In this document: piece after piece, positions 23,920 to 60,500 of the stretch
How the letters are laid out: each line of letters begins with the position of its first letter
Numbering within the stretch: position 1 is the first letter of the stretch
DNA from: Yuukianura sp. NJ FZ-2021
Taxonomy: Eukaryota
Assembly: GCA_046563655.1 (NCBI GenBank)
Contig: CM102287.1
Coordinates: 6,324,001-6,388,000 of the forward strand
Reading direction: 5' to 3'
DNA length: 64,000 nucleotides
The notes under the pieces: generated by a model
What the model was told of the DNA's origin: nothing
Database searches by the model: none
Seen by the model: only the letters and a program-made list of their open reading frames with translations
Program-made: the position numbers and the translations under genes

Positions 23920-25876
23920 CCTTCAGAAATCCCCAGAAGAAGCGATCCGCAGAGATTCACGTGAACTGCTTCAAGCCCTGGTTAAAAATGGAGTAATTTT
24001 CTGAAGACATTTCGGCTAACAACACAAAGCTAAATCTCAAGCAACGACGTCTAGTGCTAAAGTCCATAGTAATTAAGCCACTTGTAGACCTGCGTGTTTA
24101 GCTTCAGTTTTAGTCAGGTTTAAACTAATTTGAGTAGCATAATTCAGAACGTCAGAAAATAGTGGATTTTGGGTTGGCAAAAATCAAAATTTCCAAAAAT
24201 CCGGTTTCATAGTTGTATTCAAGGTTGTGTGATGTATTAAGGATCAAATGAAGTTAAACTTTACTTTAGGTCGTAACATAATTAATTAACTATTATCAAA
24301 AAATACATGACGCGACGTTACAACTTACAACTAGACTAACATTATTCTGAAGTCATTTTCAGTTGCAAATATATAGTAATTGGAGTTAAAATTAACGCAA
24401 ACGTCAGATTATCTTACCTTCGTTATACAATAATTAGCAAAATGAAGTGCATAATTTCGCCAGTGTGAAATCGTTCCATTATATTCGCGTGACACGGATA
24501 ATTTTTTAGCTTTCTGCATTTGGATTCTGCAGCGGTTTCAATGGAAAAACTTAAAATGTAATTACGTTACCTTAACCTGTACCTTCACCAATTGATGGGG
24601 CATCCATTATAGCTGCCAATGAAATACGAATTCAAGGGGTTTGCTAAATGCTCAATTAGGTTGACTAAACCCTAGGTTAACGAAGAGGTTAAATTTATTT
24701 AGCATTTTAGTTTTCTTACGTGTTGTGGACCAAAAATAGTTTTTTTCTGTTCTGTTCTTTCAATTTACTAAATTGTACAAGTTATTTGCAGAGTATATAC
24801 TAAAGTTTTCAACCTTGATTATTGTTTTAACTGAAAGAACAATGGAAATGTTTCTGGCATGATCACTGCTAGAAAGAACAACAAACCAAAAGTTCTAGAA
24901 AAAAGCATAAAGAAATATTAAGAAGCATTTGTTTTACAAAAGCTCTGCTCACCTTCAAAAAGTGGTATTAAATTGTAATTAACCGATTCTCACTAATTGC
25001 TATTTGATTTGTTCTCAAATTTTGAAGCATTACGGCATCGCCCGGCTTCCGGACTCTACATATTGGGAAGCAAGGTAGCGTTTTGCCTGATTTGAACTTA
25101 TTTTCTTTTATAGTGGCTCAAGGTTATGGTTTTTGCAGGATTGTTGCCAATTCAAAATGGAATTGCTGTCTGTTTGAGCACTAGAGCATAGAAAACTGGT
25201 AATAATTTTCCTGTCTCAATGACCTTTAAAGTAATGATTTATAGCAATGAATATTAAAGTCTTCTTGACCCTGAAACGGCAAAAAGAAAAGTTATTGCCG
25301 TCCTACAGCACCTTAAATAAATTCAAATCAGATTCAAAGCCAACATGCCAAAATTTAATTGCAAATGACTGCACAAAAATTAATTTTAGCTTTTTCAACA
25401 TTGTTTTGCGGTAAGAAATGGAATTTCTCGATAAGTGATTTGCCGATTTGTGCAAATCGAGGAAGTGGCGAATGAGCAGTTTGGTAAAAATCCGTTCCTA
25501 AACGGAAGTCCAGCATCTAAAGAAGTGTTTGCTACTTATAATTGTAGTGATTTTTTATATGACTTAATCAATGTAAACATGATGAGAAACAAGGTAACAA
25601 GGAAAAATTACTTCCCAAAGACACACCTCCAAGGAAGCCCCTCACTCAGTATTCCTTTTGCAATTTTGAAGATGACGAAGCAAACAAAAGTTTAGGAAAA
25701 ATGGACATGAAGAGCAAGTAGGAAGTGGAAATCCATGAAGTGTTGGCCACTCAGGGTAAGCCAGGGGTCACACTTTAGCATTGTGTGAAGCTTTTTATCA
25801 TAACGTTTTTTGGTAATGTAAATCTCAATTACAATTGATTTTTAACTTCACTAGGAAGAATCTGAGTCTGGTGAGG

Positions 25877-25915
25877 TATAAAAGCACTGATTTCCAGCAG
25901 TCATCTTCATCAGTT
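25877..25915 (+). promoter_or_regulatory. TATA box and arthropod initiator of the AAP-repeat cuticle gene
   Basis: TATAAAA at 25877-25883 and TCAGTT at 25910-25915; same arrangement at 31301 in copy 2. Confidence 0.75.
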
Positions 25916-25982
25916 ACTCAAGCATTTTTCAGCTTTAGTACTAAATTTCATCAAATCCAAAAAAAAACTCCAAAACTCCAAA

Positions 25983-26499
25983 ATGAACACTGTAAGCGAA
26001 CTGAAAAGAAAAACATTCCGTTTTTGAAACTTTTCAAAATTTTGACAAATTTTTTGAACTGTTCCAGGGACTCATTGTCTTGGCTCTTGCTGCTTTCGTT
26101 GCCTCAGGAAATGCTGGCAACTTGGGATTGGTCCGAACTGTAGGAGTTGCCCCAGTTGCACCGGTTGTCGCCGCTGCTCCAGTAGCCTACAGCCATGTAA
26201 GGAGCCTCCGGTTTCCAAATTTTCAAAAACTAATCTTCAAAACTGAATTTCGAAAAAATTGTGTTTCGATTTAGGTGTACAGCCACGCTCCAGCTCCAGC
26301 TGCCGTCATTAAGACCCACACCTATGCAGCACCAGCAGTTTACGCTGCTCCAGCCGTTGTAGCAGCTCCAGCCATCGTCCGAGCTGCTCCAGCCGTCGTA
26401 GCAGCTCCAGCCATTGTCCGAGCTGCTCCAGCCGTTTTGGCCCCAGCTCCAATCGTAAAAGCCGCTCCAGCGCTCGCCGCCCATCCAGTTTTGATCTAA
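25983..26499 (+). CDS. AAP(A/V)-repeat low-complexity cuticular protein, copy 1 (120 aa)
   Basis: Exons 25983-25991, 26068-26196 and 26275-26499; signal peptide MNTGLIVLALAAFVASGNA; tandem AAPAV/AAPAIVR motifs typical of arthropod cuticle proteins. Confidence 0.88.
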
Positions 26500-26863
26500 A
26501 AATGTCAATCGTGTCTTCGAATCGCCTACACACTAAAATGATGTAAACGTTAGTTGGAAATGTCAATCAATTGGCAATAATTGGCAAACTTCGACAACAA
26601 ATTGTATCAAAATATCTGTGATTTCTCCTACCAATGTTTGTATTTAATTTCAACATTGAATTTTTTAATATAAAGAAATTCCTATGTAATCCTAATCACA
26701 GTCTTTCCCTGCTGAATATTATCACTGATTTGATTGCTTTGCGACGGTTCCTCTACTCGGTGATCCAGAAGTTCGTATAAGAATTGTTTTAGCTTATTCA
26801 GTGAATGAGATTGGTTTCTAACAGTTTCATTGGTTTTTAACAGGTATTGGTATTAGTTTCACC

Positions 26864-29800
26864 TTAAGTTTTTACAGCTCGTCGAATGTGTTCCGAATCG
26901 GGTATGAGTCCTGTCCAAAGCTCTGCGGCCCAAAGCGCTTGTTCAATTACAATATCTCGTCCAGTTACAACAGCTATTGCGGGACTCAGTTCTTCGTCTT
27001 CGGAGGCCATGTTCCCATACGCCAGTTTCACAAGTACTGCGCCATATTGGATTCGGAAGATTTTGTTCACAAATGCATTAGTACACATTCCGGAGTATCC
27101 TGGAGTGGTATCCACGATGACAGCAACTGGACAGTCTGCATTTGGTAGTGACTCTTCCTGCTTGTAAATTTTTAGGACCGTGCCAGTGTCTTCTTCCACG
27201 ATACTTGATTTCAAAAGTTCCTGCAACCGGGACTCCGTTCTGTTGTAAAGGTAGATTTGTTTGAAGCCAAATGTGTTGAGGGCGAAAAGTGCTGCTCTGG
27301 CAGTTCCTCCTGCTCCAATCAACATGGCACTTGAACTCGCGCATTCCTTTATATACAAAACTCGCTCCAAGCATTTCTGAATTCCTAGCCAATCGGTGTT
27401 ATCTCCGTGCAGTTTTCCATTCGGCTGGACAACAATGGTGTTTACTGCTCCAATGGCTTGAACTACTTGGGACACCGAATCCAGGAGAGGAATGATTGTC
27501 TGCTTGTGGGGTATTGTCACTGACCCACCGCCAAAATCAGGATCCCTGATGACCTTCCGGATTTCGTCCAAGTCATCTGTGTCTTTAATGGAATATTTGA
27601 AGGGAAGTCGGAAGTAGTCGAAATTCGTGTTGTGAATCAAGGGAGAGAGGCTGAAAAAAATAATTCGCTTAAATGTTTTGTTCGACACTTCATATTTAAA
27701 TCGTTAGAGATCGGTACCCATCGTAAACATTAACTTACGTGTAAGAAATGTTGTGGCCAAAAATGAAAAATTTCTTTGGAGTTATAATGTTCTGTTCGGT
27801 GAGTGCAGACAAGATTTCCTGACAAGTGAGTTGCGCTAGGTTCGAATTCTTGTCCATTTTGCGCAGTTCTTCATGTGTCACGGGCGTGAAAAAACGATTT
27901 TTGACTCGAGTAATCCTTCCTTCGACTCCAAAATTGAATGCGATTAATGGCAACTTTTCGGCACTTCTGGAATAGTATTCATCTGTGAACTTCTGGACGC
28001 TTAGGTTATGTTCTTCCGAAATTCCAGCTGACACCAACTGGAAAAACATGTTGAAATAAAAATTTACACTATGCTGTCTGGATTGGTGGAATTTAGGAGT
28101 ATAAAAATTAATATTGAACAATTACCTTAATTATATCTCCAATCGCTGCTGCTTTTTCTACCTTCGCTTGAATTTCACTTCCGCTCCATTCTATAGGCTG
28201 TAGGATGCTGTGATAGGACGCTATAATTCGAGACTTTTTGGAAGCTGCTTGTTTGACCTTGCTCAGTATGCTTGAGTTTAAGGAAATTTCAAGGTCAATG
28301 AATTCACAACCAAGTTTGACAGCATATTCCAAAATTTCAACCAACTTTGATTCTGTGACCTTCGACGGTAGCTGCCCGCCTTCTGCTGCTGACCTCACTG
28401 TAAATATGATTGGATGCTCCCCGATGACTTTCCGAATCCGGGTGACTTGCCTTGCCAAGTATTTTTTGAAACTTCTAAATCCAAAATCCGGTTCGGAATT
28501 CCACGCAACATCAACTCGTAACTCAACTGCTGCAGTACCGCTGATCCATTTTGGGAAGAACGTGAAGAATTGGAGTGACATCTTCCAGAAGCAGTGTTAG
28601 AAAGAACGAGCGGAACTCTAAACTGGGCATAACGTTCTGGAACAGCTTACCGTTGGCGTAGTTGACAATATGGAAGATAGAATTTACTGCCAAGGTTTGC
28701 GCTAGACCTGTACCATCTGCCTCGAATAAGTATGTGTAGTTTGACAACTTCTCCAGATCATGTAAAGACTCATTCATGGTTAGATCACTGATGATATGAA
28801 TCACAATTCCTTTAGCTTCTATCCATTCCGTAAGAAATGGCTTTCCGGAAGTTGCCATCCAGTGTTTCGACAGCGTAATGACTTTTCGCTTTTTCATGTC
28901 TTCTGATACCTCTGATATTTCTTCCAAGAAAGTCCAGTTCATAGCGTCTGCCAATTGGTTTGCTAGAGCGTTAACGTAAGGACCAATCAAAATGATCGAC
29001 GCTTCGTTGAGTTTTGCGGTAGGTGACTCACTGTGGCTTCTGTCCACGACTAGCGAATTTTGGGAGTTTGAATCAATTTCGATTTTTAGTTGCTTGAAAA
29101 TTTCGGATTTTGGAACGGGTGTTGCTTTGTTTCCAAATGGAAGCCCGAGTTGTGCCAGAAGTGTGGCCCTGATTTGATCGCTGGAGTTCTTCTTATCCAA
29201 TTGCATGATCCTAATCACATCTTCCGGAGTACAAGGTTGAAAAGATCCGAAGGCACCGACAATTCCCTCGGCTTCTAAAATGGACGTAGGCAAATTCGCT
29301 TTCCTTAAAACATTTTTCAGTCTGTCCACAATTTCTGGACATGCGCCAATCAAAGACGTTGCAATTTCCTGTTCTATCACCATTCCAACTGAAACTGCCT
29401 CACCGTGGAGTAGGTATGGATAATAGTGTTTTTCCAAAGCATGGCCCACGGTGTGACCAAAGTTCAGAAATTGACGCTGTGCCAAGTCTTCTCTGTCGTT
29501 GGTCGTAACGATAGCCTTGAATTTGATGGATTCAAACAAAAGTTGTAAAAGATTCAAATAAGTTGCAGAATCTTCAAAGTTGCGGTTCAGGAAAAGATGG
29601 CTGACTTTCTCAATGTTGGATTCCAGAAACTCGAAATCTTCTAAACTAGAAATTGCGCAAGTTTTGATAACTTCTGCCATTCCATTGAACAGTTCTCGTG
29701 GTGGTAGAGTTGTTAAATATGCGAGGTCAATGTAAATCCTGACTGGTTCATAAGTGGTTCCAATAAGATTCTTTCCAGCCGGAGTATCAATTCCATTTTT

Positions 29801-30691
29801 ACCACCAATTGAACTATCTGCCATGGCAAGTAACGTTGTAGGAAGTTGGATCAGCGGTACTCCTCGGAGGTACGTGGATGCAATGAATCCAACGAGGTCA
29901 CCTACTACACCGCCGCCCATTGCGATGAGACAAGTATCGCGGTTGAATGACTGTCCAATCAGAAAATCTTCGATTTTTGCAACCATTTCCCGACTTTTGC
30001 TGCTTTCTCCAGAAGGAATCACGTATTGAAGGATTTGTTTCTCGAATTGTTGGTCCCCTGTGATTGAATTAATAATTTTTACATAAATTGTAATAAAAAT
30101 CGTTCATTTGCGTACATTTGTAGTGATAGAAGCTGATGCAGAAGAAATGTTTATATTTAACAGTAAGCACATTTTAATTTCAGGAGTTCAACCTAAACGA
30201 GTGATTGAAGAAACTAAAATTACACGAAACATTCAGTGCAGCGAAAAAGTTTCAGATAATTTGTATGGCGTTAAATCTGCACTTGAATTTAAACGAATTG
30301 GGATTTGACTTTCACCGAGGTGAGGAGGTGACCCTAAACTTCAATCACCTTATTTTTAACTTTTTTCAATGCAATATGTCGTACTGCAATAATAGTTTCA
30401 CTAATTTTGAATTTTAAAATTGTTAGTTCGCCATCCGTTCTTTTTTTGTTAGGGAACATCGTCGGAAAATGTGTATTTACCTCTTTGTTGCAGGTTTTTA
30501 AAAGTTGCGAGGAAGCTCGGAAGATGCAATTTTGCCACATGCTCATCAGTGATAATTACAATGACTCGTACTTTTGGAACAGCATTCTTCAGTATGTCTT
30601 CTACTATAAATTCAGAGAAATCTCGTCCAATGTAAATGCTTTCCTTGCCGAAGATCTCGACTTGGAGCGGTTTCGTCCCACAAATATCCAT
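26864..30691 (-). CDS. ARO1: AROM-derived multifunctional enzyme, copy 1: DHQ synthase + degenerate shikimate kinase + type I DHQ dehydratase + shikimate dehydrogenase, no EPSP synthase (about 1075 aa; one +1 frameshift near 28546)
   Basis: Exons 30691-30481, 30057-28126, 28037-27739 and 27650-26864. [60 protein letters not shown]. DHQase I: AVELRVD, FTVRSAAEGG, IIASYH, GDIIKLV. SDH: LSPLIHN, SVTIPHK, GAVNT, GDNTD, GAGGTARA, NRT. Confidence 0.92.
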
Positions 30692-31133
30692 TGCCAATCG
30701 TTCGGATTCGGAAACCTACAAGGTACGTGCCTGTGAAACCACAATTAATTCCCGCAACAAGAGACTCCGCTTCTGTAAACAAATCAAAACAAAAGTTAAA
30801 CCACAATAATTATTAATGTGTCAGTTGTCAACAAAATTTCACAAATTTTTCAGTATACACACCGTCCCGACTTTAAGTTAATAAGATTTTTAACAGTAAA
30901 CAAATTAGTTACCAAATTGCGCTGCTGCGTCAAGAGACGAAGGAACTAAATTGAAAATCAAAAACCAGTTGGAAGTTATATTAGTCAATATGTTGAAGAA
31001 CGCATGAAATGAACCTCTCAGGTTGATGATAAAGATATTTAGTTTTACCCCAAAATATGAACCACAGAAAATAACAGAAAACTTAAAAATTTTAAGTGAA
31101 AATCACCCACCTTTTAATGCGAAGCTTACAATT

Positions 31134-31233
31134 NNNNNNNNNNNNNNNNNNNNNNNNNNNNNNNNNNNNNNNNNNNNNNNNNNNNNNNNNNNNNNNNNNN
31201 NNNNNNNNNNNNNNNNNNNNNNNNNNNNNNNNN
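31134..31233. other. Assembly gap (100 N)
   Basis: Run of exactly 100 N, the usual placeholder for a gap of unknown size. Confidence 0.99.
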
Positions 31234-31407
31234 GTAATGTATTACATCTCAATTACAATTGATTTTTAACTTCACTAGGAAGAATCTGAGTCTGGTGAGG
31301 TATAAAAGCACTGATTTCCAGCAGTCATCTTCATCAGTTACTCAAGCATTCTTTCAGCTTTAGTACTAAATTTCATCAAATCCAAAAAAAAACTCCAAAA
31401 CTCCAAA

Positions 31408-31885
31408 ATGAACACTGTAAGCGAACTGAAAAGAAAAACATTCCGTTTTTGAAACTTTTCAAAATTTTGACAATTTTTTTGAACTGTTCCAGGGACTCAT
31501 TGTCTTGGCTCTTGCTGCTTTCGTTGCCTCAGGAAATGCTGGCAACTTGGGATTGGTCCGAACTGTAGGAGTTGCCCCAGTTGCACCGGTTGTCGCCGCT
31601 GCTCCAGTAGCCTACAGCCATGTAAGGAGCCTCCGGTTTCCAAATTTTCAAAAACTAATCTTCAAAACTGAATTTCGAAAAAATTGTGTTTCGATTTAGG
31701 TGTACAGCCACGCTCCAGCTCCAGCTGCCGTCATTAAGACCCACACCTATGCCGCACCAGCAGTCTACGCTGCTCCAGCCGTCGTAGCAGCTCCAGCCAT
31801 CGTCCGAGCTGCTCCAGCCGTTTTGGCCCCAGCTCCAATCGTAAAAGCAGCTCCAGCACTCGCTGCCCATCCAGTTCTGATCTAA
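31408..31885 (+). CDS. AAP(A/V)-repeat cuticular protein, copy 2 (107 aa)
   Basis: Same three-exon structure as 25983-26499, lacking one 39-nt (13-aa) repeat unit. Confidence 0.85.
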
Positions 31886-32203
31886 AAATGTCAATCGTGT
31901 CCTACAATCGCCTACACACCAAAATGATGTAAACGTTAATTGGAAACGTCAATCAATTGGCAATAATTGGCAAATTTCGACGCAAATTGTATCAAAATAT
32001 CTGTGATTTCTCCTACCAATGTTTGTATTTAATTTCAACATTGAATTTTAATATAAAGAAATTCCTATGTAATCCTAATCACAGTCTTTCCCTGCTGAAT
32101 ATTATCACTGATCTTGATTGCTTTGCGACGGTTCCTCTACTCGGTGATTCCAGAAGGTGTCGTATAAGAATTGTTTTAGCTTAATTCAGTGAATGAGATT
32201 GGT

Positions 32204-32890
32204 TTCATTGATACTACAGTTCTTCCAGCATCGCAGCATGACGTTGAAAATATTTGTATCGTCGTATTGCGGCTTTTCCAACTGTTGGTCTTCTAATAAC
32301 AGCATTTATAGTAGAGAGGTATTTATGTACTGTGACACAGGACTGCTCGAAACTAAAACTTAAGCTTCTAGCTTGACTTTTTCCCATCCTCATGCAATTC
32401 CTAGTTTTTGAAAGACTGGAGAATGGAATAATCGTAATTCCAAGACCTTTCTAAAGATTTGGACTACAGTAGAGATAAGCTTCTGTAGTAGTACTTGCAT
32501 TTGAGCGTTCGTTGCGACTTTTGTAATTCTAGTTTTTCTACATCTAATAGGCGTGGGATTGCAAGTTTATGGAACTTGCATTAACCTTCCATAAGCTTGA
32601 CCTTCCATAAGCTGACCTTCCATAAACTTGCAATCCTTGGATGTCTAATCCTTTAATTTTCGGATAGTACAAGGGTGCTGGTGCTACCAATGTGGATGCA
32701 GCATCTCAATTCCAAAATCCGTAAAGTGTTTTTTAAAACCCTTTAAACACAGAACTAATTCTGGAAATAACGGCCATACAAAACAAATCTTGGCAAACAA
32801 CAAGAAAAAATGCTGACAATCCTATAAGATTGAACCTCTACCTATAGGTGGAACAAAAGACGAGGCTTCATTGCTGGTTACATTAATTAC
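32204..32890. mobile_element. About 0.68-kb segment present only in copy 2, possible non-autonomous element
   Basis: No counterpart near 26810-26840 in copy 1. ttcattg occurs near both ends. Internal perfect 19-bp inverted repeat (32556-32574 / 32618-32636) with three accttccataa units. No ORF. Confidence 0.4.
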
Positions 32891-32914
32891 GCAGGTATTG
32901 GTATTAGTTTCACC

Positions 32915-36734
<3,820 letters not shown>

Positions 36735-37798
36735 TGCCAATCGTTCGGATTCGGAAACCTACAAGGTACGTGCCTGTGAAACCACAATTAATTCCCGCAA
36801 CAAGAGACTCGCTTCTGTAAACAAATAAAAACAAAAGTTAAACCACAATAATTATTAATGGGTCAGTTGTCAACATTTCACAAATTTTTCAGTATACACA
36901 CCGACCCGACTTTAAGTTGATAAGATTTTTAACAGTAAACAAATTAGTTACCAAATTGCGCTGCTGCGTCAAGAGACGAAGGAACTAAATTGAAAATCAA
37001 AAACCAGTTGGAGTTATATTAGTCAATATGTTAAGAACGCATGAATGAACCTCTCAGGTTGATGATAAAGATATTTAGTTTTACCCCAAAATATGAACCA
37101 CAGAAAATAACAGAAAACTTAAAAATTTTAAGTGAAAATCACCCACCTTTTAATGCGAAGCTTACAATTTAAATTAAAGAAAAATCGGTTTAATCAAATC
37201 AAGTCAGCTGAAATAGACTGCCTCTCTTCTGTACTGACGTAACGATAGTATAATTCTAACTGCAGACTTCGATTTGTTATCATCTCATTCAGCGTCCTTA
37301 TAATTCTGGATTATGCTTTAAATGCTAAGAAGCTTTTACGAGTTTATGTTGTGAGACAAGGGGATTTTGGAAGCGTTTCTTATTTGGAATGCTTTTTAAA
37401 AGCTTGGACACAAATTGTCTAAAAACCAGTCACTTTGAACAAAAGACATTAACGTTATCCGACGCAGCGAGTTCAATCTTATTTTAGGACAAAATTCTGA
37501 AACAAGAATAGAACAAAATTTTGAACAGAACAGAAATGCTTCTTTAAACTAAGGAATTGTAATACAGGGCAATGTCCAGCATCAATGGCATAAGTCTTAA
37601 GTCCAAATCCGATATGCGCCAAATTTGACCCTTCCTGGAAAAACATTCTGGTCATCATTGGCGTCACTTTCTTCGGGAAGCCACTTCTCAGAATTTGCGA
37701 TTCCGTTTTTAGATTTTTTCAAAGGATTTTCCTAGTAAATCAAAGTCCACGGGGAAAAAATATGATGAAGGCAGCTTTATTGCTAAAAAAGCGGCTTC

Positions 37799-38040
37799 TG
37801 TACAAAGGTCCAAGGCTGATGTGTACAGAAGCGAGGCCAAGGGAGCGCCAAAATGACGCAATCTGTACAGAAACCAGGAAACTCTGCACAAAATTTCATC
37901 TGCTCTCATCCCCTCTTCACGTGAATTGATTCATTAAAAAAATCTCAAAGAACTCGTTTCTGTACATGGTTGCATTATTTTGATCACCAACTCAAAGTCT
38001 GTACAGATGACCTCTTATGGACTTTGGTCTTGTACAGAAA
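37799..38040. promoter_or_regulatory. Cluster of six TGTACA palindromes in the divergent AROM-like/DAHP synthase intergenic region
   Basis: TGTACA at 37799, 37822, 37864, 37961, 38000 and 38031, mostly within (C)TGTACAGA(A). Regulatory function is an inference. Confidence 0.4.
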
Positions 38041-38789
38041 TGATGCAACTTCTGGACATTACCAAACTGCGCAGTTGATTTTAAGAGGAAGCAGGGCCGT
38101 CAATTCTTTTTAATTGTTAGGTTAAAATTACGAATTTGAAATTCAAATTGAAGTCAAAACAATAAAAAAACAACAAAAAAAAAGCCAAATCCAGTCATAA
38201 ATAAATGCATCTTTCAAATGACACATACGATCATTATTCCTTGATTCCAAAAGAATTAATAATTTCTTTTGAACTTCAAATTTTTATATTTGAAATTGAA
38301 ATTTTGATGGAAGTGACGTGAGAAGTACATTGCCATTCTTCTAATATATTAATGAGAAAAAAGTCTCGATTTCATTTGATATGTTTGCAATTTCCCCAAG
38401 AATTCTCGATTGTTGTTTTTTAGCAATACATATTAAATTAATTATTGAAATAATATAAAACAGTACTGTTATTTTGGAGCAATAGCGATGAAGCATTTGT
38501 GTTTTTAAGTTGTGTTATGTTTGCTTGTGATGTGATTTGCTCCATTCACTTGTGTTAGCGAGAAGATTTGTTGACGCCAAGTTCTGTTTTTCCTTGCAGT
38601 GGCCAATTTTGGGATAAATAGCCGCAAGGAACTCAAGTTTACCAACAGTCGTATTTTCACTCACAAAAGAAAACACTAAAAAAGGAAAAGGAAGCCAATT
38701 TTCAAAAACCAAACCTAAAATACTATTTTCATTTGAGAACTTTTGCTCAAGTAATTTTTCAAAAGCAATTTGAATCAGAATTTGGAAAG

Positions 38790-40635
38790 ATGGCAAGTCT
38801 TCCAAAACAAACTTGGAGAAACTTTCCAATTGCTCAGCAGCCAATGTGGCCCTGCCGAATCGAACTTCAGAATGCATCAGAATCTAGTAAGCTCAAAAAA
38901 TTTTGATTTCCAAACACTGCCTTTTTTTAAACAAACTTAACTTACAATTTTTATTTGTTTTCAGTCCGAAATCTTCCACCGCTCGTGAGTCCAATGGAAG
39001 TGCTGAGACTCCGGAAGCAACTGGCAAGCATTGCAAAAGATGGGACAGGATTCGTATTACAGGGAGGAGACTGCGCTGAACGTAAGTGTACTCTAAATAC
39101 AAATTTTGAAACTCAGCATTATTTCATGTGTTGAGGCTTTGACTAATGTCGTGAAACTAAATTTTAACTGCATTGTTCATAAAAGCCATCGATCCATTTC
39201 AGGTTTTTCTGACTGTCGTCCAGAAATGATTGAAACCAAAATCCGAGTCCTTTTGCAAATGGCTGGCGTTCTCAAGCATGCCACAGGAGAGCAATGCGTC
39301 GTAATTGCAAGAATTGCAGGGCAGTATGGCAAACCAAGGTCATCAGACCCAAAAACCGAAGGTAAAATTCCTAATTCAATTACTAACGATAAGTTACGCA
39401 CAAAAGTCACACTAAAATTGAACATGTTTATAAAACAATTATTGAAGTTTGTTTAAGTCCAGTTTAAAAAATTGTCTGTTCATGTTCTGCTAGATCCAAA
39501 AAAAATCTTTCGCGGAGACAACATTCACGGTTTTGACGTGAGCGATCGCCGCCAAAATCCACAGCGGCTCATCCAAGGCTACTTCCATTCCAGTGCAACG
39601 CTGAACTACATTCGAACGCTCCTCAAAGATGGGTTCGAAGACATTCCAGACTTTCCGCCATCTTGGGACATGCAATTCCTCAAGGACAATCACAAAGTTG
39701 CTTCCACAGACATCCAAACAGACATGCTCAGACAAGTCACGGACAACGCCCACAACTTTCGCTTGATCAAACAAAGCGAAGATGAAAAAGCTATGATCCA
39801 TATTTCACATGAAGCACTTTTGCTTGACTATGAAGATGCAATGACACGAGAAGTCGATGGCAAATTCTACAATTTGAGCGCTCCGTTCATTTGGATCGGA
39901 GATAGAACTCGACAGTTAGATCATGCGCACATTGAATACATCAGCCACATTGAGAATCCAGTTGGCATCAAAGTAGGCTTTATTATTAGTACACAACTTT
40001 CTTAAAATAAATTTCGAATTGAGTTTCAAATTTCAAAATTTTTCAAAGGTTGGACCAACCATGGAAGCCGAAGAGCTTCTCATGCTTCTGAAACTCATTT
40101 GGCCAAATCCAGAAAGAACTCCTGGAAAAGTGACGCTTATCACACGCTACGGTGCTTCCAAGGTACGAAATTTCAAAAATGAAATTTTTGGAAAATCGAC
40201 GCTTCAATTACTAATTTGACTGCAAATTTGTAGGTTGAAAAGCTTCTTCCCCGTCACATTGAAGCTGTTCAGTCAGCAGGGTACAAAGTCGTATGGTCAT
40301 GTGACCCATGTCACGGAAACACCCGTGTTTCGGCTGAAAGTGGCTTAAAAACCCGAGACTTTATGGACATCTACACCGAGATCCGGAAGTGTCTTGAAAT
40401 TCACAATGCCTATGGTAGTCGCCTGGGTGGGATCCACATTGAATGTACTGGCGAAGACGTCACGGAGTGTATTGGCGGTTGCGAAAATTTAACAGAATCG
40501 GATCTGCCACTTCGTTTTGAGTCCTACTGTGACCCGAGGCTGAACTATGTCCAGTCTATGGAACTTTCGTTGCTACTGGCATCCATTCTGTCTCAAGACA
40601 AAGTCCCGAAAATCCACGCCTTTTTGCAGGAATAG
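38790..40635 (+). CDS. Class II 3-deoxy-D-arabino-heptulosonate 7-phosphate (DAHP) synthase, 6 exons, 455 aa
   Basis: Exons 38790-38886, 38965-39081, 39203-39361, 39494-39972, 40049-40162 and 40234-40635 give an uninterrupted frame with WR..PIAQQP, LPPLV, QGGDCAE, RIAGQYGKPRS, FRGDN, SHEALLLDYE, WIGDRTRQLDHAH, NPVGIKVGP, LITRYGA, CDPCHGNT, GGIHIECTG and CDPRLN. Confidence 0.96.
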
Positions 40636-40845
40636 ACAATGTTAGGCGTAGTTAGTAACAATGGAGTTTGGCGCAGAATTGAAATTCTATTTTATTTTTC
40701 ATATTTCGTAATATAGTTTTTACCATAAAATGTAATATATTTAGAAATTCGGATAAGTTTTTAATTTAAGTCAACACGGTTGACTTGTACATATTAAAAT
40801 AAAAATGGTTCAAAAACATTTCGCAAACTTCAATTTCCTGGATGT

Positions 40846-41502
40846 TCATCGTTTTCCAAGTTTTAAAATCGAAATAGCTTGTCCAATTTTAAGTCCTTTT
40901 CCTAAAGCTCCTGTTAAACCTGGCCCAGGCTTACCCTTTCTATCTGCCCCACCAATTCCAGCAAGTCCAGCCATACCATTTTTCTTTGAATTTTTTTGGT
41001 TTTCACTTTCACTGGAGCCTGATTCTTCAGAGTGAGATTTCCTGTGTTTCTTTTTGGTTTTAGATTTTCTGGAAGAATGTGATCCCGATTTTCCGCCTTT
41101 GCGTTTAGCTTCTTCTGACGTTTCTCCTGATTCCTCTTCCCGATTTTTGGCGTTCGCTTCTTTTGATTTGGGTTTACCATTTTTGCCTTGAGGTTCCCCT
41201 GACTCTGGATCTTCTTCCGAAGAAACTTGCGGGGCTTTGCCCCACTCATCGGGTGGATCCGTTAATGCATCTGGAGACTTTGCCCGAGACCCTCTACTGC
41301 CGTCGCCACCAGAAATTGTCTCCGAAGATCCACTTTTGTCACTATTTGGTTTATCGGTATTACTGTGAATTCCGTGGGCGTGGTCAAAAATACTTCGGGT
41401 TTCTGAGCGCTGAGTAGGTTCGGCAAGTTGCGGTCGTCCTACCATTTTCTGACCATGAACAGCCAAAAGGATGAACAAAACCAAGTCAAATCTGAATTCC
41501 AT
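40846..41502 (-). CDS. Secreted low-complexity protein with C-terminal cationic Gly/Leu/Lys-rich segment ending GKR
   Basis: Single 218-aa ORF; signal peptide MEFRFDLVLFILLAVHG; S/E/K-rich disordered middle; hydrophobic-cationic tail. Confidence 0.75.
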   Translation of the reverse strand: MEFRFDLVLFILLAVHGQKMVGRPQLAEPTQRSETRSIFDHAHGIHSNTDKPNSDKSGSSETISGGDGSRGSRAKSPDALTDPPDEWGKAPQVSSEEDPESGEPQGKNGKPKSKEANAKNREEESGETSEEAKRKGGKSGSHSSRKSKTKKKHRKSHSEESGSSESENQKNSKKNGMAGLAGIGGADRKGKPGPGLTGALGKGLKIGQAISILKLGKR

Positions 41503-51862: not shown

Positions 51863-54172
51863 CTAATTGCCGTCTTTCTTTGAGTCTGAAGTGGCAACTT
51901 GGACAGATCCTTGTGTCGGTGTCAAATGTTGTGATTGACCGGCAGGAGACTGTCCTTGACCCGGGGTCAACTGTAGTGGCTGTTGCTGCTGTTGTTGCTG
52001 CTGTGCAAATTGGACTTGTGGTCCCCCCAAGGGGAATCCATTCGGTCCAACACCACCGATATAATCATAAGGAAGCGACCCTAGAGCACCGTTGTTGCCT
52101 TGGACATTTACAAACTGCGGATTCACTCTGCCTTGGACAATCCCTTGAGCCGTGACCCCTTGACCTTGAATGTACTGTGGTTGTTGCCCTTGGAGTGAAA
52201 ATTGTGGCCCTCCTTGGTATGGAACGCTACCGGAGAATTGACCCTGCCCGGGTAGAATGTAGGGACCGCGGATTTGGGGTCCTCCGAATTGAGGCTGTGG
52301 ATAATACTGTTGCTGGAGGGGATAACTTTGATACTGGGGTTGTTGACCTTGAAAAGCAAATTGATTCAGTTGAGGCTGCGGTTGCTGCAAATAGGGAGTT
52401 TGTGGTCGAAGGGGTTGTTGGATTTGTTGTAACTCCTGTTCGTTGTATGGTGACACTCCGAGTCCCGGACGACCTTGACCTTGAATCACTTGTGGCCCGA
52501 GAACCTGCGGGTTGTACTGACCTGCAATCCGGTCTCCTGTTGGAGTCTTTAGTGTTGGAGTTTTCTCATCAGCAGCTTCCTTGCTAGCGTCATTTCCTTG
52601 ATATCGGTCTACGAAACCATCCTGTTGGAAATTAGACACAAATTTAAAAAAAAATACAACTTTGAAAAAAAATGTGAACAAACATTTTTAGTTAACCTGA
52701 TCATTATCTTCACTAAATCCATCCAGTTCCGGGTTTGGAATGTATTCTTGGCGGGATCCTCCGGTTCCACGGTTAAACGCTTGTGGACCACCGACTGTGA
52801 CAGGTGAAGTTGTAAACCGATTCGGTTGTTGTCCTTCAAATTGTTGCCCGCCAGAGGTTGAAGGTCCTGGGTATGGCCCCGGGCGGTATCCTGGACGCAG
52901 GTACTGAAGATCCTGCGGACTTTGTCCATTGTAGGCAATTGGCTGCTGCTGCGACTGTGGACCAACTCCTCTGTAGTAACTTCCTGGTGGGACACTCACA
53001 AATCCATCGTCATCTTGACCCTGAAGTTGATTTATTTGACCTTGGTTTGAATACTGTCCTACCGACGGAGTCAAGCCACCAAACTGCGGAGATGAAACGT
53101 ATTGCGCAGGATACTGCCGTCCCACGTAGTGAGTTGGACCAAACCCTCCTCCTACAGGGTACTGTTGCTGTCCACCGATGTAGTACGGTGGTTGGGCACC
53201 TCCAGGACCCTGAAAGTACTGCGCTTGCGGTCCACCAAATTGTCCTTGGCCTCTTGTGTCCACAAATTGTCCACCTTGGACAAGCTGAGTTTTCGGGTTG
53301 TACGGTTGGGATCCTCGGAATGGCTGACCTTGACCTGCATAAGGGGATCCAACTATTCCACCCCCTGATGGTCCCCCAAGTTGACCTTGTCTTTTTGTAA
53401 GTTCGGAAGTTTCTCCATCGTCCTTATTCTGACCAAGCGGAGTGTTGAATGAATTGAATGCTGGTTCTTCTTCGCCAGAAGTTTCGCTAGAAGCCCCACC
53501 TGAACTGTTTTCGGCACTCGTAGACTTCTCTTCGGAAGCCCGATTTTCACGGGGTTTTGGCCGAACCGAAAGTGTTTCAGTTTCGGTAGCTGAAGTACCC
53601 GGTTCTGCATTCCCCGATGGCGGAATCTTTTTACCAGTTGAGTATTCGGCCGTTTTCAGTTGGCCATTGGCGTCAATAAATCCGTACTTTCCTGTGACGC
53701 TTCCATCTTTTGACCTTGTTTCAACCCTGTCAAGAGACAGCATATCTTAACTATTGCTTTAAATTAAAAAAAAAGTTGGGTTTGGAAAAAAAGGTACAGA
53801 ATTTTATAGAAACTTCCATCAAATCATTGGGATTCAAAGAGATTTTAAACAGGTTAGGTTAGTCTTTGCAAGATTATGAAAAAGCATTAAAAATTACTTG
53901 AAAGAACCATCATCTGCCTCAAATCCAACAGTGTATGTTCCATCGTCATTCAATTTGTTAATTTCTTTTACGATTTTGGCTTGAGAGTTCGGTAGTTGCT
54001 GGTTTAGTGTTGCAGCACTTGAAAGCCAAATCATGACTCCAAAAATCTAAAAATTGAAATTTAACATGAGTATTACGAGCATATTTTGGGAATTTTTTTT
54101 GAATGGAGTTTAAACTTTTTGTAAAAGTAAAAAAGCAGTTTTTCTTACCAAGAGAGGGATTAGTCCCTGCAT
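51863..54172 (-). CDS. Cuticular protein with Rebers-Riddiford chitin-binding domain and long G/Q/P/Y-rich tail
   Basis: Signal peptide, then KIVKEINKLNDDGTYTVGFEADDGSF/RVETRSKDGSVTGKYGFIDANGQLKTAEYS, followed by ORFs 52688-53743 and 51863-52681. Confidence 0.88.
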
Positions 54173-57590: not shown

Positions 57591-60500
57591 TTAAGATCGA
57601 ATGTTGAGATTTGAGAGGAAAGCATCAATTTGTCCAGTTGCTGGAGAATTCATGGCTTCCTGTGCATCAGCATGAAGACCTGGAAGGCTAGCGGCAGACG
57701 GTTGATAAGCAAACTGATTTCGGAATAGAGGGCTTTGGTACGGGAATGGTTGAGTTGCAGGTTGTTGTTGAAGATGCTGATTGTAATACTGGAGTTGCGG
57801 TTGGCCAAAACTTTGCAACTGAAATTGTTGAGGTTGCTGCTGCTGCTGCTTCGGTTCAACAAATCCGCGCAGGCGCTGTGTCAGAGTAAACTGCTGCTCG
57901 TCTTGTTTCTGCGGTGCCTGGACCAGGACTGATGTGTATCGGCCTGTAGATGGATCAAAAACCAGTTCTGTTTTGTATTGTCCAAAGTCATTCACCTGAC
58001 TAGGCTGTTCTTCCTGAATGGAATTTGTTGGAAGAATTGGCTGAGGTAGAACTGGTCTTGCTGGTTGGTAAGCTGGATGTTGCGCAGGCGCAGTTGGAGT
58101 GGGTTGTTCTTGCAGAATGTTGGCAGCATTTCCGCTGCCGAAGTACTGGCGATGTGGAAATCGGTGGACAGACCCTGAGTGATACCGAGGAACTTGTGGG
58201 AATGGAGGCAGCGTCGGTGGCTGGAATTGTGGTGGATGTTCTTGTAACTGTTGCTGTTGCGCGAAATGTTGCTGTTGTAGTTGCTGAGAAAATGGTTGCA
58301 ACGGTTGCTGCTGTTGCGGAATAAATTGTGGCCTCTGGATTCGCTGTAGTTCTTGTTCAAAATCGAAAGCTTTGTTTGCCCCTCTCTGTTCCAGTATTGG
58401 TCCAGCCGTTGGAAACTGTGGAATTGTCGGTTGTGGTTGCTGAAATACTGGTCGTGGTTGCTGAAATGCTGACTGGACTGAACGACCTTGAAGTTGCAGT
58501 AGTGATGGAAAAGTTGACGGTGGGGAAGGCGTTGTTCCAGGAGTTGCTCGTTGCGTCACTTTCACTTGCGGTGGTCGAAATGTCGTAGGTTGTGCAAATT
58601 CTGGCCTATGCCTAGGAGATCCTGCTTGAAATCGTTCTCTGCAAAGTGAAAAGATGAAAATATTTTAGAAGTTCTTCTAAATTCCAATTTTTGTTTTTCT
58701 CTTTTCAAAATTCAATTTTTACCTGTGAGTAAGTCGAAATGCGGGTGGAATGGCCTCTTCAGTGCCCGCCTGTTCCAAACTTTGCTGTACATCTTGTGTA
58801 ATAACTGGTCTTCTGGGTCTGCTAATAGGAGCTCTGCGTGGTGGCTTTTCCGGTTCTTCTAGAGCGTCATCTTTGTCAGGGTCATTAGGGTCACAGGGGT
58901 TACCAGAAACATAGGCAAATTCCCTTTGCACTCCATCTGGGTCAACATACCTAGGGAGACAATAGAATTCCAATTTGCATTTCATTTTAATTGTCCATTA
59001 CGTAAGTTGGAATAATTTTGGTGGTCGGAATGATTATCCCTCCCATGTTTTACAATATTCGGATCAAAAGTAGGTCAAAGGCTTCGCCTATGGGCTTATG
59101 ATTCACAAAAACACTGCTGGTCTAATTAATCTTTTAGTCTATATTTTGGTACAGAATTGATGATGCTTTTCTAGAGTGTTACAAAGTTTGCGTTTTACTT
59201 ACTACTGCGAAGGCATGTCTGTAATTATCAATGGAAATGGAGGTGACCAAACAGAATTCAATGTTCAATGGGACGCAATTCCCAAAATTGGCCAAGTAGT
59301 TTCAATAATTGTAACAAAAATTATTTCAAAGTGATTGAGAATGTCATAAAAAAAATGACATCGTCTGTCACATCCGTAGGTTACTACACCATTGGGAACT
59401 TTTAAACTTTTCAGGCATTCAGTTCTCGCGTTGCAGTAACAAAAAAGAAGAATGCATTACGTTAAAACACAAAAAGCATTCTGAATTCTAAAAAGTTCAT
59501 TTTCTGACTCAAAGAAAATCAAAATTTTTACCCATATTTTCCTCGAACGACACAGTCGGTTCCGCGAGTTTCTTCTTTGAAAGACCCATCTTCACCTACA
59601 AGCATTTCAAAACGTTAGATTAGCTTCACTTTCCTCTAAGGTCAACTTTTGCAGAGGTCAATCCCAACTTTAGTCAGCCCATTACCTTCATATCCAAAAG
59701 TGAATGACCCATCTTCGTTTATTCTGCTGAAGTTACGCGTAGTTCCAATTGGTTGTTTCTTATTTTCTTCATCCACAGCTCCACGGTCTTTCAAATTGAC
59801 ATTGGCAAGGAGTGCTGAACGAGTGCTTGACGGAGTGGCCTTGCGATACATGGGAACCACTCGAACTGGCTCAATCACTTGTGGCTGGTCTTCAAAAATG
59901 GGCTACAATTCACAATTAGAGCAACATTAGGCAATAAAAATATGATATATAATTAATATACTACATACGCACGTAGATACACGCTCAATTTTTCATTATG
60001 CTATAAACCATTAAACACCTTCGCAGCATTAATCAACTTCTATTCTTCCCAATCACGCAACGCAAGGTCAGCGTGGGCATAAACAAAGCATTGATCTTCC
60101 CGTCAGCAATTATTGGCCCAGCATTGTTGTTGCTTAGTCTGTGGACTCATTGGCACAAACAATGCCAAACGTAAATTACTCTCTGAAAACGAGAATTTCA
60201 CACCTTGATGGTCACTTCTATTACAACCGAGGAGACCAAGAATTCACTTTCACTAGCGTGTGAAAATCTGTCTGAATGTTGATGATGAATATGGCTTTGT
60301 TGGTTTTTTATAAATCACTCACAAACTGGGTCGTAACAAAAGCATTATGTGAATTTTTAACTCTAGGAAATGAATAATTTCTGACTCAAATGCGTAGAAA
60401 TTATTTTTGTACAGAAACTTTTATGCAACTGGGAAATAAATCCTGAAGCGATCTCATCATTTCTTGGGCTCAGCACAAGTCCAAATAGACTCTGGGCTAT

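Follow-up and report, generated by a model that had tools for sequence, protein, structure and literature searches.

A trimmed AROM-derived gene with a stripped shikimate kinase core in a soil animal genome, the putative early half of a split shikimate pathway

What does a shikimate-pathway gene of fungal type do in the genome of an animal? Animals are held to lack this pathway (PMC3018139, in the available part of that paper), a belief behind both the view that aromatic compounds are essential in their diet and the assumption that glyphosate is safe for them. We analysed a stretch of 64,000 nucleotides (hereafter the window) from Yuukianura sp. NJ FZ-2021 (GenBank assembly GCA_046563655.1, contig CM102287.1, positions 6,324,001 to 6,388,000), which carries a gene derived from AROM, the fused enzyme whose full, pentafunctional form joins 3-dehydroquinate synthase (DHQS), EPSP synthase (EPSPS), shikimate kinase, type I dehydroquinase (DHQase) and shikimate dehydrogenase (SDH). 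The best reading of the locus is that the gene is fungus-derived and would have been acquired horizontally. We further consider it somewhat better than an even proposition that the gene represents the early half of a complete, split and mosaic shikimate pathway, with the core of its former kinase kept as a scaffold.

The gene lies on the reverse strand and is assembled twice in the window. Spliced, copy 1 encodes 1,075 amino acids (aa) across three GT-AG introns, with one extra base near 28546 read through; no in-frame stop occurs across the 1,075 codons, and every splice site is canonical. The encoded chain runs from DHQS through a 28-aa linker and a 130-aa shikimate kinase remnant to type I DHQase and SDH. 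The features of the gene are as follows:

26864..30691, minus strand: AROM-derived gene, copy 1, in four exons (30691-30481, 30057-28126, 28037-27739 and 27650-26864)
29087..30691, minus strand: DHQS domain, aa 1-394 (Pfam E values 4e-43 and 1e-30), with one intron
29003..29086, minus strand: linker of 28 aa, poorly conserved, at the place where AROM has an EPSPS of about 450 aa
28610..29002, minus strand: shikimate kinase remnant, aa 423-553 (HHalign 93-94% to AROM kinase)
28964..28984, minus strand: lost Walker A site, where GPYVNAL replaces GMRGAGKTTL (a three-residue deletion, no Lys)
27790..28609, minus strand: type I DHQase domain (Pfam E values 8e-28 and 6e-12; alignment)
28545..28547, minus strand: 1-bp insertion in copy 1 at the start of DHQase; copy 2 is in frame at the same place
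26864..27770, minus strand: SDH domain (Pfam E value 1e-20; alignment), with one intron
32915..36734, minus strand: AROM-derived gene, copy 2, 97.4% identical to copy 1 and interrupted by single inserted bases near 35640 and 34806

The DHQS end is marked by DKKN at aa 358 and by FKQL ending at aa 394; the linker (29086-29003) follows, the remnant opens at aa 423 (29002), and DHQase starts with SFFLTL at aa 554 (28609). This is the layout that an initial annotation had read from the letters, and both the sequence and the spliced model bear it out. Pfam matched DHQ_synthase, DHQS_C, DHquinase_I, Shikimate_dh_N, Shikimate_DH and SDH_C, and gave no match to EPSP_synthase or SKI in either copy, as the annotation had anticipated for DHQ_synthase, DHquinase_I, Shikimate_dh_N and EPSP_synthase.

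Loss of EPSPS is seen in the spacing of the chain. From the DKK motif to the Walker A position we counted 71 aa, compared with a median of 520 (498-572) in 105 full AROMs, so about 450 aa of EPSPS has been lost. A profile made from 40 of 109 AROM rows found no EPSPS in the six frames of the whole 64-kb window (best E value 1.5). Among the best 120 long homologs listed, the domain was present in 119, and the named ones were fungal. The deletion proposed at the outset stands on the spacing, on the missing Pfam EPSP_synthase and on the six-frame search. The window protein is not a pentafunctional AROM: it has an N-terminal DHQS and, in the same chain once the extra base is read through, type I DHQase followed by SDH at the C terminus, and it lacks EPSPS and a kinase with a Walker A site.

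The initial annotation had also seen a kinase reduced to its first strand and the following helix. Loss of the Walker A loop was confirmed (copy 2 has Ser at the lost site where copy 1 has Pro), but more of the domain survives than had been thought. The remnant can be aligned over all its 130 aa with a profile built on 56 AROM kinases (HHalign 93.1% local, 94.1% global; E values 3e-7 and 2e-8), whereas the probability for EPSPS was 0.34%. On a kinase hidden Markov model, the copy 1 remnant scored 8.0 bits, against 4.0 for the best of 1,000 shuffles (815 scored). Its 130 aa compare with a median of 190 for AROM kinases, and the alignment places three deletions: three residues of Walker A including the Lys, about 31 of the shikimate-binding subdomain and about 22 of the LID. 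The shikimate-binding Asp, Arg and GGG positions are lost or replaced and the LID arginines are gone. The combination that defines the enzyme, Walker A GxxxxGK(S/T) with shikimate-binding Asp/Arg/GGG and LID Arg, is not found in the remnant. Because these catalytic residues are missing, kinase activity appears very unlikely.

A structural model of the remnant built without any kinase row predicts the order strand-helix-strand, strand, helix, strand, helix, strand, long helix, so that a five-strand core and the last helix of the kinase are predicted to remain. Structural neighbours of this model, found with VIA at a best Z of 6.1 and a root-mean-square deviation of 3.6-4.6 Å over 94-106 aa, were mostly kinases of the nucleoside monophosphate (NMP) type; among these best neighbours were hCINAP, dephospho-CoA kinase and a designed P-loop protein. 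The prediction is consistent with an NMP-kinase-type fold but does not prove it. A second model, from 20 rows, contained kinase-bearing rows and is not independent evidence, and the ESM Atlas held no usable match for the remnant.

The remnant is shared with one relative. P0121, a Logan protein 43% identical to the window protein and of the same layout, was the only credible match when 1.84 billion representatives were searched with the remnant region (E value 2.5e-22; one of two matches), in a search of a 90% protein set in which relatives sharing the remnant alone may have been missed. P0121 has an equally short linker, has likewise lost Walker A, and its remnant is of nearly the same length (130 versus 132 aa). 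The two remnants share 47 identities and score 171, compared with a mean of -33 and a maximum of 26 for shuffles, whereas the two linkers align no better than shuffles (327 of 1,000 as good). Where DHQS is 52% identical between the two proteins, the remnant is 36% identical, a ratio of 0.70; for intact kinases the same ratio has a median of 0.63 over 150 AROM pairs. Residues conserved with P0121 include the strands and the last helix. Since P0121 shares the core at a level of conservation like that of working kinases while the linker is at chance level, the dead core is, as judged from these alignments, old and under constraint. Two other candidates were set aside: P0122, which is a repetitive, unrelated protein, and a metagenome locus (L001; 31% identity, weak), which was not used.

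What would such a core be kept for? The annotation's suggestion of a structural spacer fits this conservation, and we propose that the core was most likely retained for packing on DHQase and for spacing it from DHQS. A packing role fits the Aro1 of Candida albicans: according to the available part of PMC9074039, its kinase behaves as a single unit with DHQase and SDH, both in crystals and in motion, and the linker between kinase and DHQase has six residues. Alternatively, the remnant could be a pseudokinase surface that docks a separate EPSPS-kinase protein, giving an AROM-like complex in trans, or a ligand sensor. Conservation of the remnant relative to DHQS as strong as that of active kinases, including its strands and last helix, would suit either role, but packing alone could explain that conservation, and the known ligand-binding parts are all deleted. 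The accessible text of PMC9074039 also describes Aro1 active sites more than 40 Å apart, no tunnels and relatively autonomous domains, so that docking would be unneeded. We give docking or sensing little credence.

The other three domains keep their catalytic residues. The best PDB matches of the DHQS domain are DHQS domains of fungal AROM. In invariant columns and in the alignment to 1dqs, the metal ligands Glu, His and His and the substrate-contacting Lys, Asn and Arg are retained; one conserved Glu is replaced by Asp. DHQase keeps the Schiff-base Lys, the catalytic His, Glu/Arg/Arg and the C-terminal Arg and Gln. Its Schiff-base Lys is aa 714, encoded by the last codon of exon 2; the second intron (28126-28128) begins directly after this codon. 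SDH keeps the catalytic Lys and Asp, a Thr, Asn, Tyr and Gln and the cofactor motifs GAGG and NRT, and has Thr in place of the first substrate Ser. The catalytic residues of the three enzymes are thus retained, as the initial annotation had stated. Lacking EPSPS and the defining positions of the kinase, the product is neither a pentafunctional AROM nor a shikimate kinase, and would work like the early half of AROM.

Upstream of copy 2, in head-to-head orientation, stands a gene for the enzyme of the first pathway step:

36735..38789, no strand: head-to-head spacer of 2056 bp between the start codons of copy 2 and the DAHP synthase gene
38790..40635, plus strand: class II DAHP synthase gene, 455 aa, intact, with five GT-AG introns (Pfam E value 6e-47 in two exons)

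PF01474 matches along the DAHP synthase chain, its conserved motifs are present and its frame is open; it is identical to P0246 at 288 of 436 aa (66%). The spacer is possibly a shared promoter. The AROM-derived gene and the DAHP synthase gene together hold eight GT-AG introns, and because they are adjacent, pathway steps 1-4 are encoded together. From the domains and residues, DAHP synthase and the trimmed AROM would convert phosphoenolpyruvate and erythrose-4-phosphate to shikimate.

We propose that a fungal-type AROM was acquired horizontally and then trimmed to its three early activities: EPSPS would have been removed whole, and the kinase stripped of three catalytic parts with its β-sheet core and last helix kept. 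Shikimate would pass to other, hypothetical gene products, a fusion of EPSPS with shikimate kinase and a chorismate synthase, yielding chorismate, and complementary AROM-derived genes of this kind would have made the EPSPS and kinase of the window gene redundant. A wider form of this reading, which we regard as evenly balanced, is that a soil animal rebuilt the whole pathway out of genes taken from three or more unrelated microbes, with two AROMs losing domains reciprocally, chorismate-derived aromatics made by the animal itself, a direct glyphosate target, and the dead core serving as a scaffold or dock. The donors hypothesized as part of it, which we would put on the same even footing, are the source of an unplaced DAHP synthase, a fungal AROM for steps 2-4, an oomycete-type AROM for steps 5-6, and a chorismate synthase and a chorismate mutase of fungal and bacterial origin, respectively. 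The earlier statement that the enzyme lacks the glyphosate target holds for the AROM-derived polypeptide but probably not for the animal as a whole.

The initial annotation had instead read the loss of the two shikimate-consuming activities as a sign that the selected product is shikimate or an earlier intermediate, a claim that the analysis does not support. Spelled out, that reading is a dedicated short pathway to 3-dehydroshikimate or shikimate, feeding protocatechuate, gallate or quinate for defence, antioxidant use or cuticle tanning, while hardly any flux would reach chorismate. It would agree with the clustering of only steps 1-4 at the locus, with Mucorales that keep a DHQS-DHQase gene beside a full AROM (nine named among the 120 matches listed) and with the exchange of the first substrate Ser of SDH for Thr and its altered C terminus; plant SDHs convert dehydroshikimate to gallate, as described in the available parts of PMC4892741 and PMC3057006. 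We consider a dedicated short pathway unlikely, and it can overlap with the split pathway if part of the flux branches off.

Several observations weigh against a functional, scaffold-bearing early half of a split pathway. In DHQase, the AAPGQ lid loop is replaced and is three aa longer in both copies, with the Gln retained, and in SDH the C terminus is shortened. P0127, which belongs to the same clade as the window protein, joins DHQS to DHQase by a 49-aa segment without the remnant, which indicates that the remnant is not needed at this junction in every relative. Confidence in the remnant model is low (pLDDT 47), and Foldseek with this model returned nothing at an E value of 0.001; its top rows were unrelated folds, and the C. 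albicans structure 7tbv came at rank 26 (E value 0.49). Between the copies, pN/pS (the nonsynonymous-to-synonymous ratio) is 1.3 for DHQase (6.5 versus 1.5 changes, which are few), and the remnant differs by three nonsynonymous and no synonymous changes, again small counts. Last, both assembled copies are frameshifted, copy 1 once and copy 2 twice.

These frameshifts could be real, in which case the gene would be a decaying pseudogene whose protein is no longer made in the species. That neither assembled copy has a clean open reading frame (ORF) would fit such decay, as would the DHQase pN/pS and the partial, divergent paralogous pieces found in public contigs. However, each of the three breaks consists of one additional base, and at each site the reading frame of the other copy is open; the extra base near 34806 is left out (at 34808) in the contigs of all four runs. 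This mapping of DNA contigs from four runs, which show no splice joints, covered 31300-41000, and among the indels listed it bears on the break near 34806. The stop-free 1,075 codons and canonical splice sites also argue against decay, as does an overall pN/pS of 0.35 between the copies (0.19 for DHQS and 0.12 for SDH); the linker stands at 2.2, with ten nonsynonymous differences and one synonymous. We judge a pseudogene improbable, and keep to the reading of a retained, trimmed enzyme.

The initial annotation had argued that the altered architecture is shared by both copies and hence is no sequencing error. This is weak support, because the pattern fits haplotypes joined at a contig end. The repeated block comprises 25813-31133 and 31234-37169, bounded exactly by the following feature:

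31134..31233, no strand: scaffold gap of 100 N, at whose edges the duplicated block stops and resumes exactly

The two copies are probably haplotypes joined end to end at this gap, less probably a true tandem duplication. Contig depth looks single-copy, although contig depth is no copy number: the AROM-derived gene has 33.6 against 44.9 for DAHP synthase in run X2, and 5.5 against 3.7-5.4 in run X5. Better support for the DHQS-remnant junction than copy 2 comes from the homolog P0121 and from a contig of run X2 (record 11), which spans it at 34448-35638 with one gap; X2 may be the source sample. In run X5, from a second study, the junction is not bridged on one contig; the two contigs there, records 22 and 23, have 30 bases in common.

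Could the locus be fungal DNA joined into the assembly? The scaffold gap inside the locus and the fungal best named matches would agree with contamination. The surrounding DNA of the window, however, is animal and rich in introns: TLDc and F-box genes are present (Pfam), an exon of V-ATPase H matches chains of mammalian type at an E value of 1e-66 compared with 3e-14 for yeast-type chains, and FGFR-type kinases also neighbour the locus. The single N run of the window is the gap itself, and animal genes flank the locus on either side in gap-free continuity. Among the matches listed, no named fungus is more than distantly similar (37-50% identity), the G+C content of the locus (0.43-0.45) is near that of a host exon (0.465), the DAHP synthase does not branch from within the fungal enzymes, and runs from two studies cover the region. 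We find contamination hardly credible, and an animal-encoded gene of fungal derivation remains the best reading.

The fungal derivation is suggested by the phylogeny of DHQS. In a tree of 82 rows chosen from 247, the window protein falls in a fungal clade (SH-aLRT 99), with the DHQS of Pythium, bdelloid Rotaria and prokaryotes outside. In a DHQS plus DHQase tree of 39 rows its partners are P0121 (100/96) and P0127 (100/99), and no fungal sister group has support; a link to Sanchytrium and Amoeboradix seen in the DHQS tree was lost here and is not retained. The SDH tree gave no supported sister for the window protein, and the best DHQase BLAST match among the proteins compared was Neoconidiobolus (35%). 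In a tree of 48 rows, DAHP synthase groups with P0246, P0253 and P0269, outside the fungal class II clade. The AROM-derived gene and DAHP synthase thus probably came from different donors, a tentative assignment in view of long branches. P0246 itself may stem from a related animal.

When was the protein trimmed? EPSPS has been lost from AROM within fungi, in Chytriomyces, in Mucorales and in Neofusicoccum, whose derivative is a DHQS-kinase protein. The trimmed layout could therefore have arisen in the fungal donor before transfer, which would be compatible with our proposal and for which P0121 and P0127, which could be fungal, might be cited. In an approximately unbiased (AU) test, a clade of the window protein, P0121 and P0127 with the Mucorales paralogs was not rejected (p 0.137), but free trees keep the two groups apart. 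The Mucorales proteins have no SDH; their middle segment was considered as the same dead kinase and rejected (0.3% to kinase, 0.06% to the window remnant). The EPSPS-less Chytriomyces form, a cluster of five with an intact kinase, nests among chytrid AROMs (100/100), and no named fungus among the 240 matches listed has the exact layout of the window protein. We consider an origin of the layout in the donor doubtful; trimming after transfer is likelier, not proven.

Compared with fungal AROM and Aro1 (PDB 6hqv and 7u5s; DHQS 1dqs and 6c5c), the window protein has the same order, DHQS-(kinase)-DHQase I-SDH, and the same catalytic residues in three domains, but it is animal-encoded, lacks EPSPS and has a kinase cut to a 130-aa core. 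The EPSPS-less AROMs of Chytriomyces hyalinus and C. confervae (KAI8845215.1, TPX77798.1) share its four-domain order and have lost EPSPS at almost the same point, with a spacing of 82 aa, against 71 in the window protein; they differ in an intact kinase (Pfam SKI E value 8e-34) and a separate origin in the tree. Mucorales paralogs (for example Rhizopus RCH99109.1, P0131) also have no EPSPS and no working kinase, with 120-185 aa from DHQS to DHQase, but unlike the window protein they are without SDH, have a middle segment that is not detectably kinase-like and form a clade of their own. The quinate repressors QutR and Qa-1S are AROM-derived regulators with a degenerate kinase-like domain and no DHQS; the window protein differs in having DHQS and in keeping the catalytic residues of its other domains. 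A dead AROM domain that stays in the chain while a separate gene takes over the step is described for C. albicans Aro1 and Dqd1 in the available text of PMC9074039; there, point substitutions kill DHQase, whereas the window protein combines a domain deletion with a stripped kinase.

Horizontally acquired pathway genes have precedents in animals. The accessible parts of two papers describe scattered shikimate genes, possibly of a symbiont, in Nematostella vectensis (PMC3018139) and chorismate mutase alone in hemipterans and plant-parasitic nematodes (PMC4943190). The window differs from the cases so described in having four consecutive steps in two intron-bearing, head-to-head genes. In a literature search we found no published AROM or shikimate pathway of a springtail or other arthropod, although subscription papers and bioRxiv supplements could hold one, and the available supplementary files on the genomes of Folsomia candida and Orchesella cincta gave no match to shikimate, chorismate or dehydroquinate. 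The locus shows four consecutive shikimate steps domesticated by an animal in the form of intron-bearing genes and, if separate EPSPS-kinase and chorismate synthase genes hold true, would be part of a complete pathway in a soil animal. It also offers a clean case of multienzyme trimming, in which one domain was cut out whole and the next pared down to a core that is conserved but no longer catalytic.

Some further observations concern relatives of AROM in other organisms. In Mucorales, P0130, P0131, P0135, P0138, P0139, P0141, P0142, P0143 and P0146 represent a conserved second AROM-derived gene beside full AROM. This gene, in which an eroded middle segment lies between DHQS and DHQase and of which our literature search found no published account, might supply the dehydroshikimate from which phenolic acids are made. 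Chytriomyces hyalinus is listed with both the EPSPS-less four-domain AROM (P0028 cluster, five members) and a DHQS-EPSPS protein (P0137, 11 members), possibly a split AROM in this chytrid. The bdelloid Rotaria socialis has a stand-alone DHQS (P0194) that lies outside the fungal clade and represents a separate acquisition.

Other observations concern the two copies and their variants. The copies are identical along about 670 bases of the SDH exon (26841-27514 versus 32892-33565), whereas synonymous sites of DHQS differ by 9%; this mosaic similarity suggests mosaic polishing or gene conversion. An insertion of about 650 bases downstream of copy 2 (32207-32891) is absent from copy 1, and both forms occur in public contigs. 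Record 22 of run X5 is a 1,655-base contig about 91% identical to 33462-35103 (remnant, DHQase and the start of SDH) that joins itself and has a depth of 294, compared with about 5 nearby; it may be a partial copy, tandem or circular and of high copy number, from a related organism. All four runs contain another version of the SDH 3′ end (32839-33312), about 10% divergent, at a depth like that of the window form in X1 and X2. Three runs have loose contig ends at 34019 and 34940, which suggest that additional partial paralogs exist.

Elsewhere in the window, low-complexity ORFs rich in Arg/Glu and in Gln/Gly/Pro lie on the minus strand at 1-983, 51866-53746 and 57594-58664, and probably encode cuticle or secreted structural proteins.

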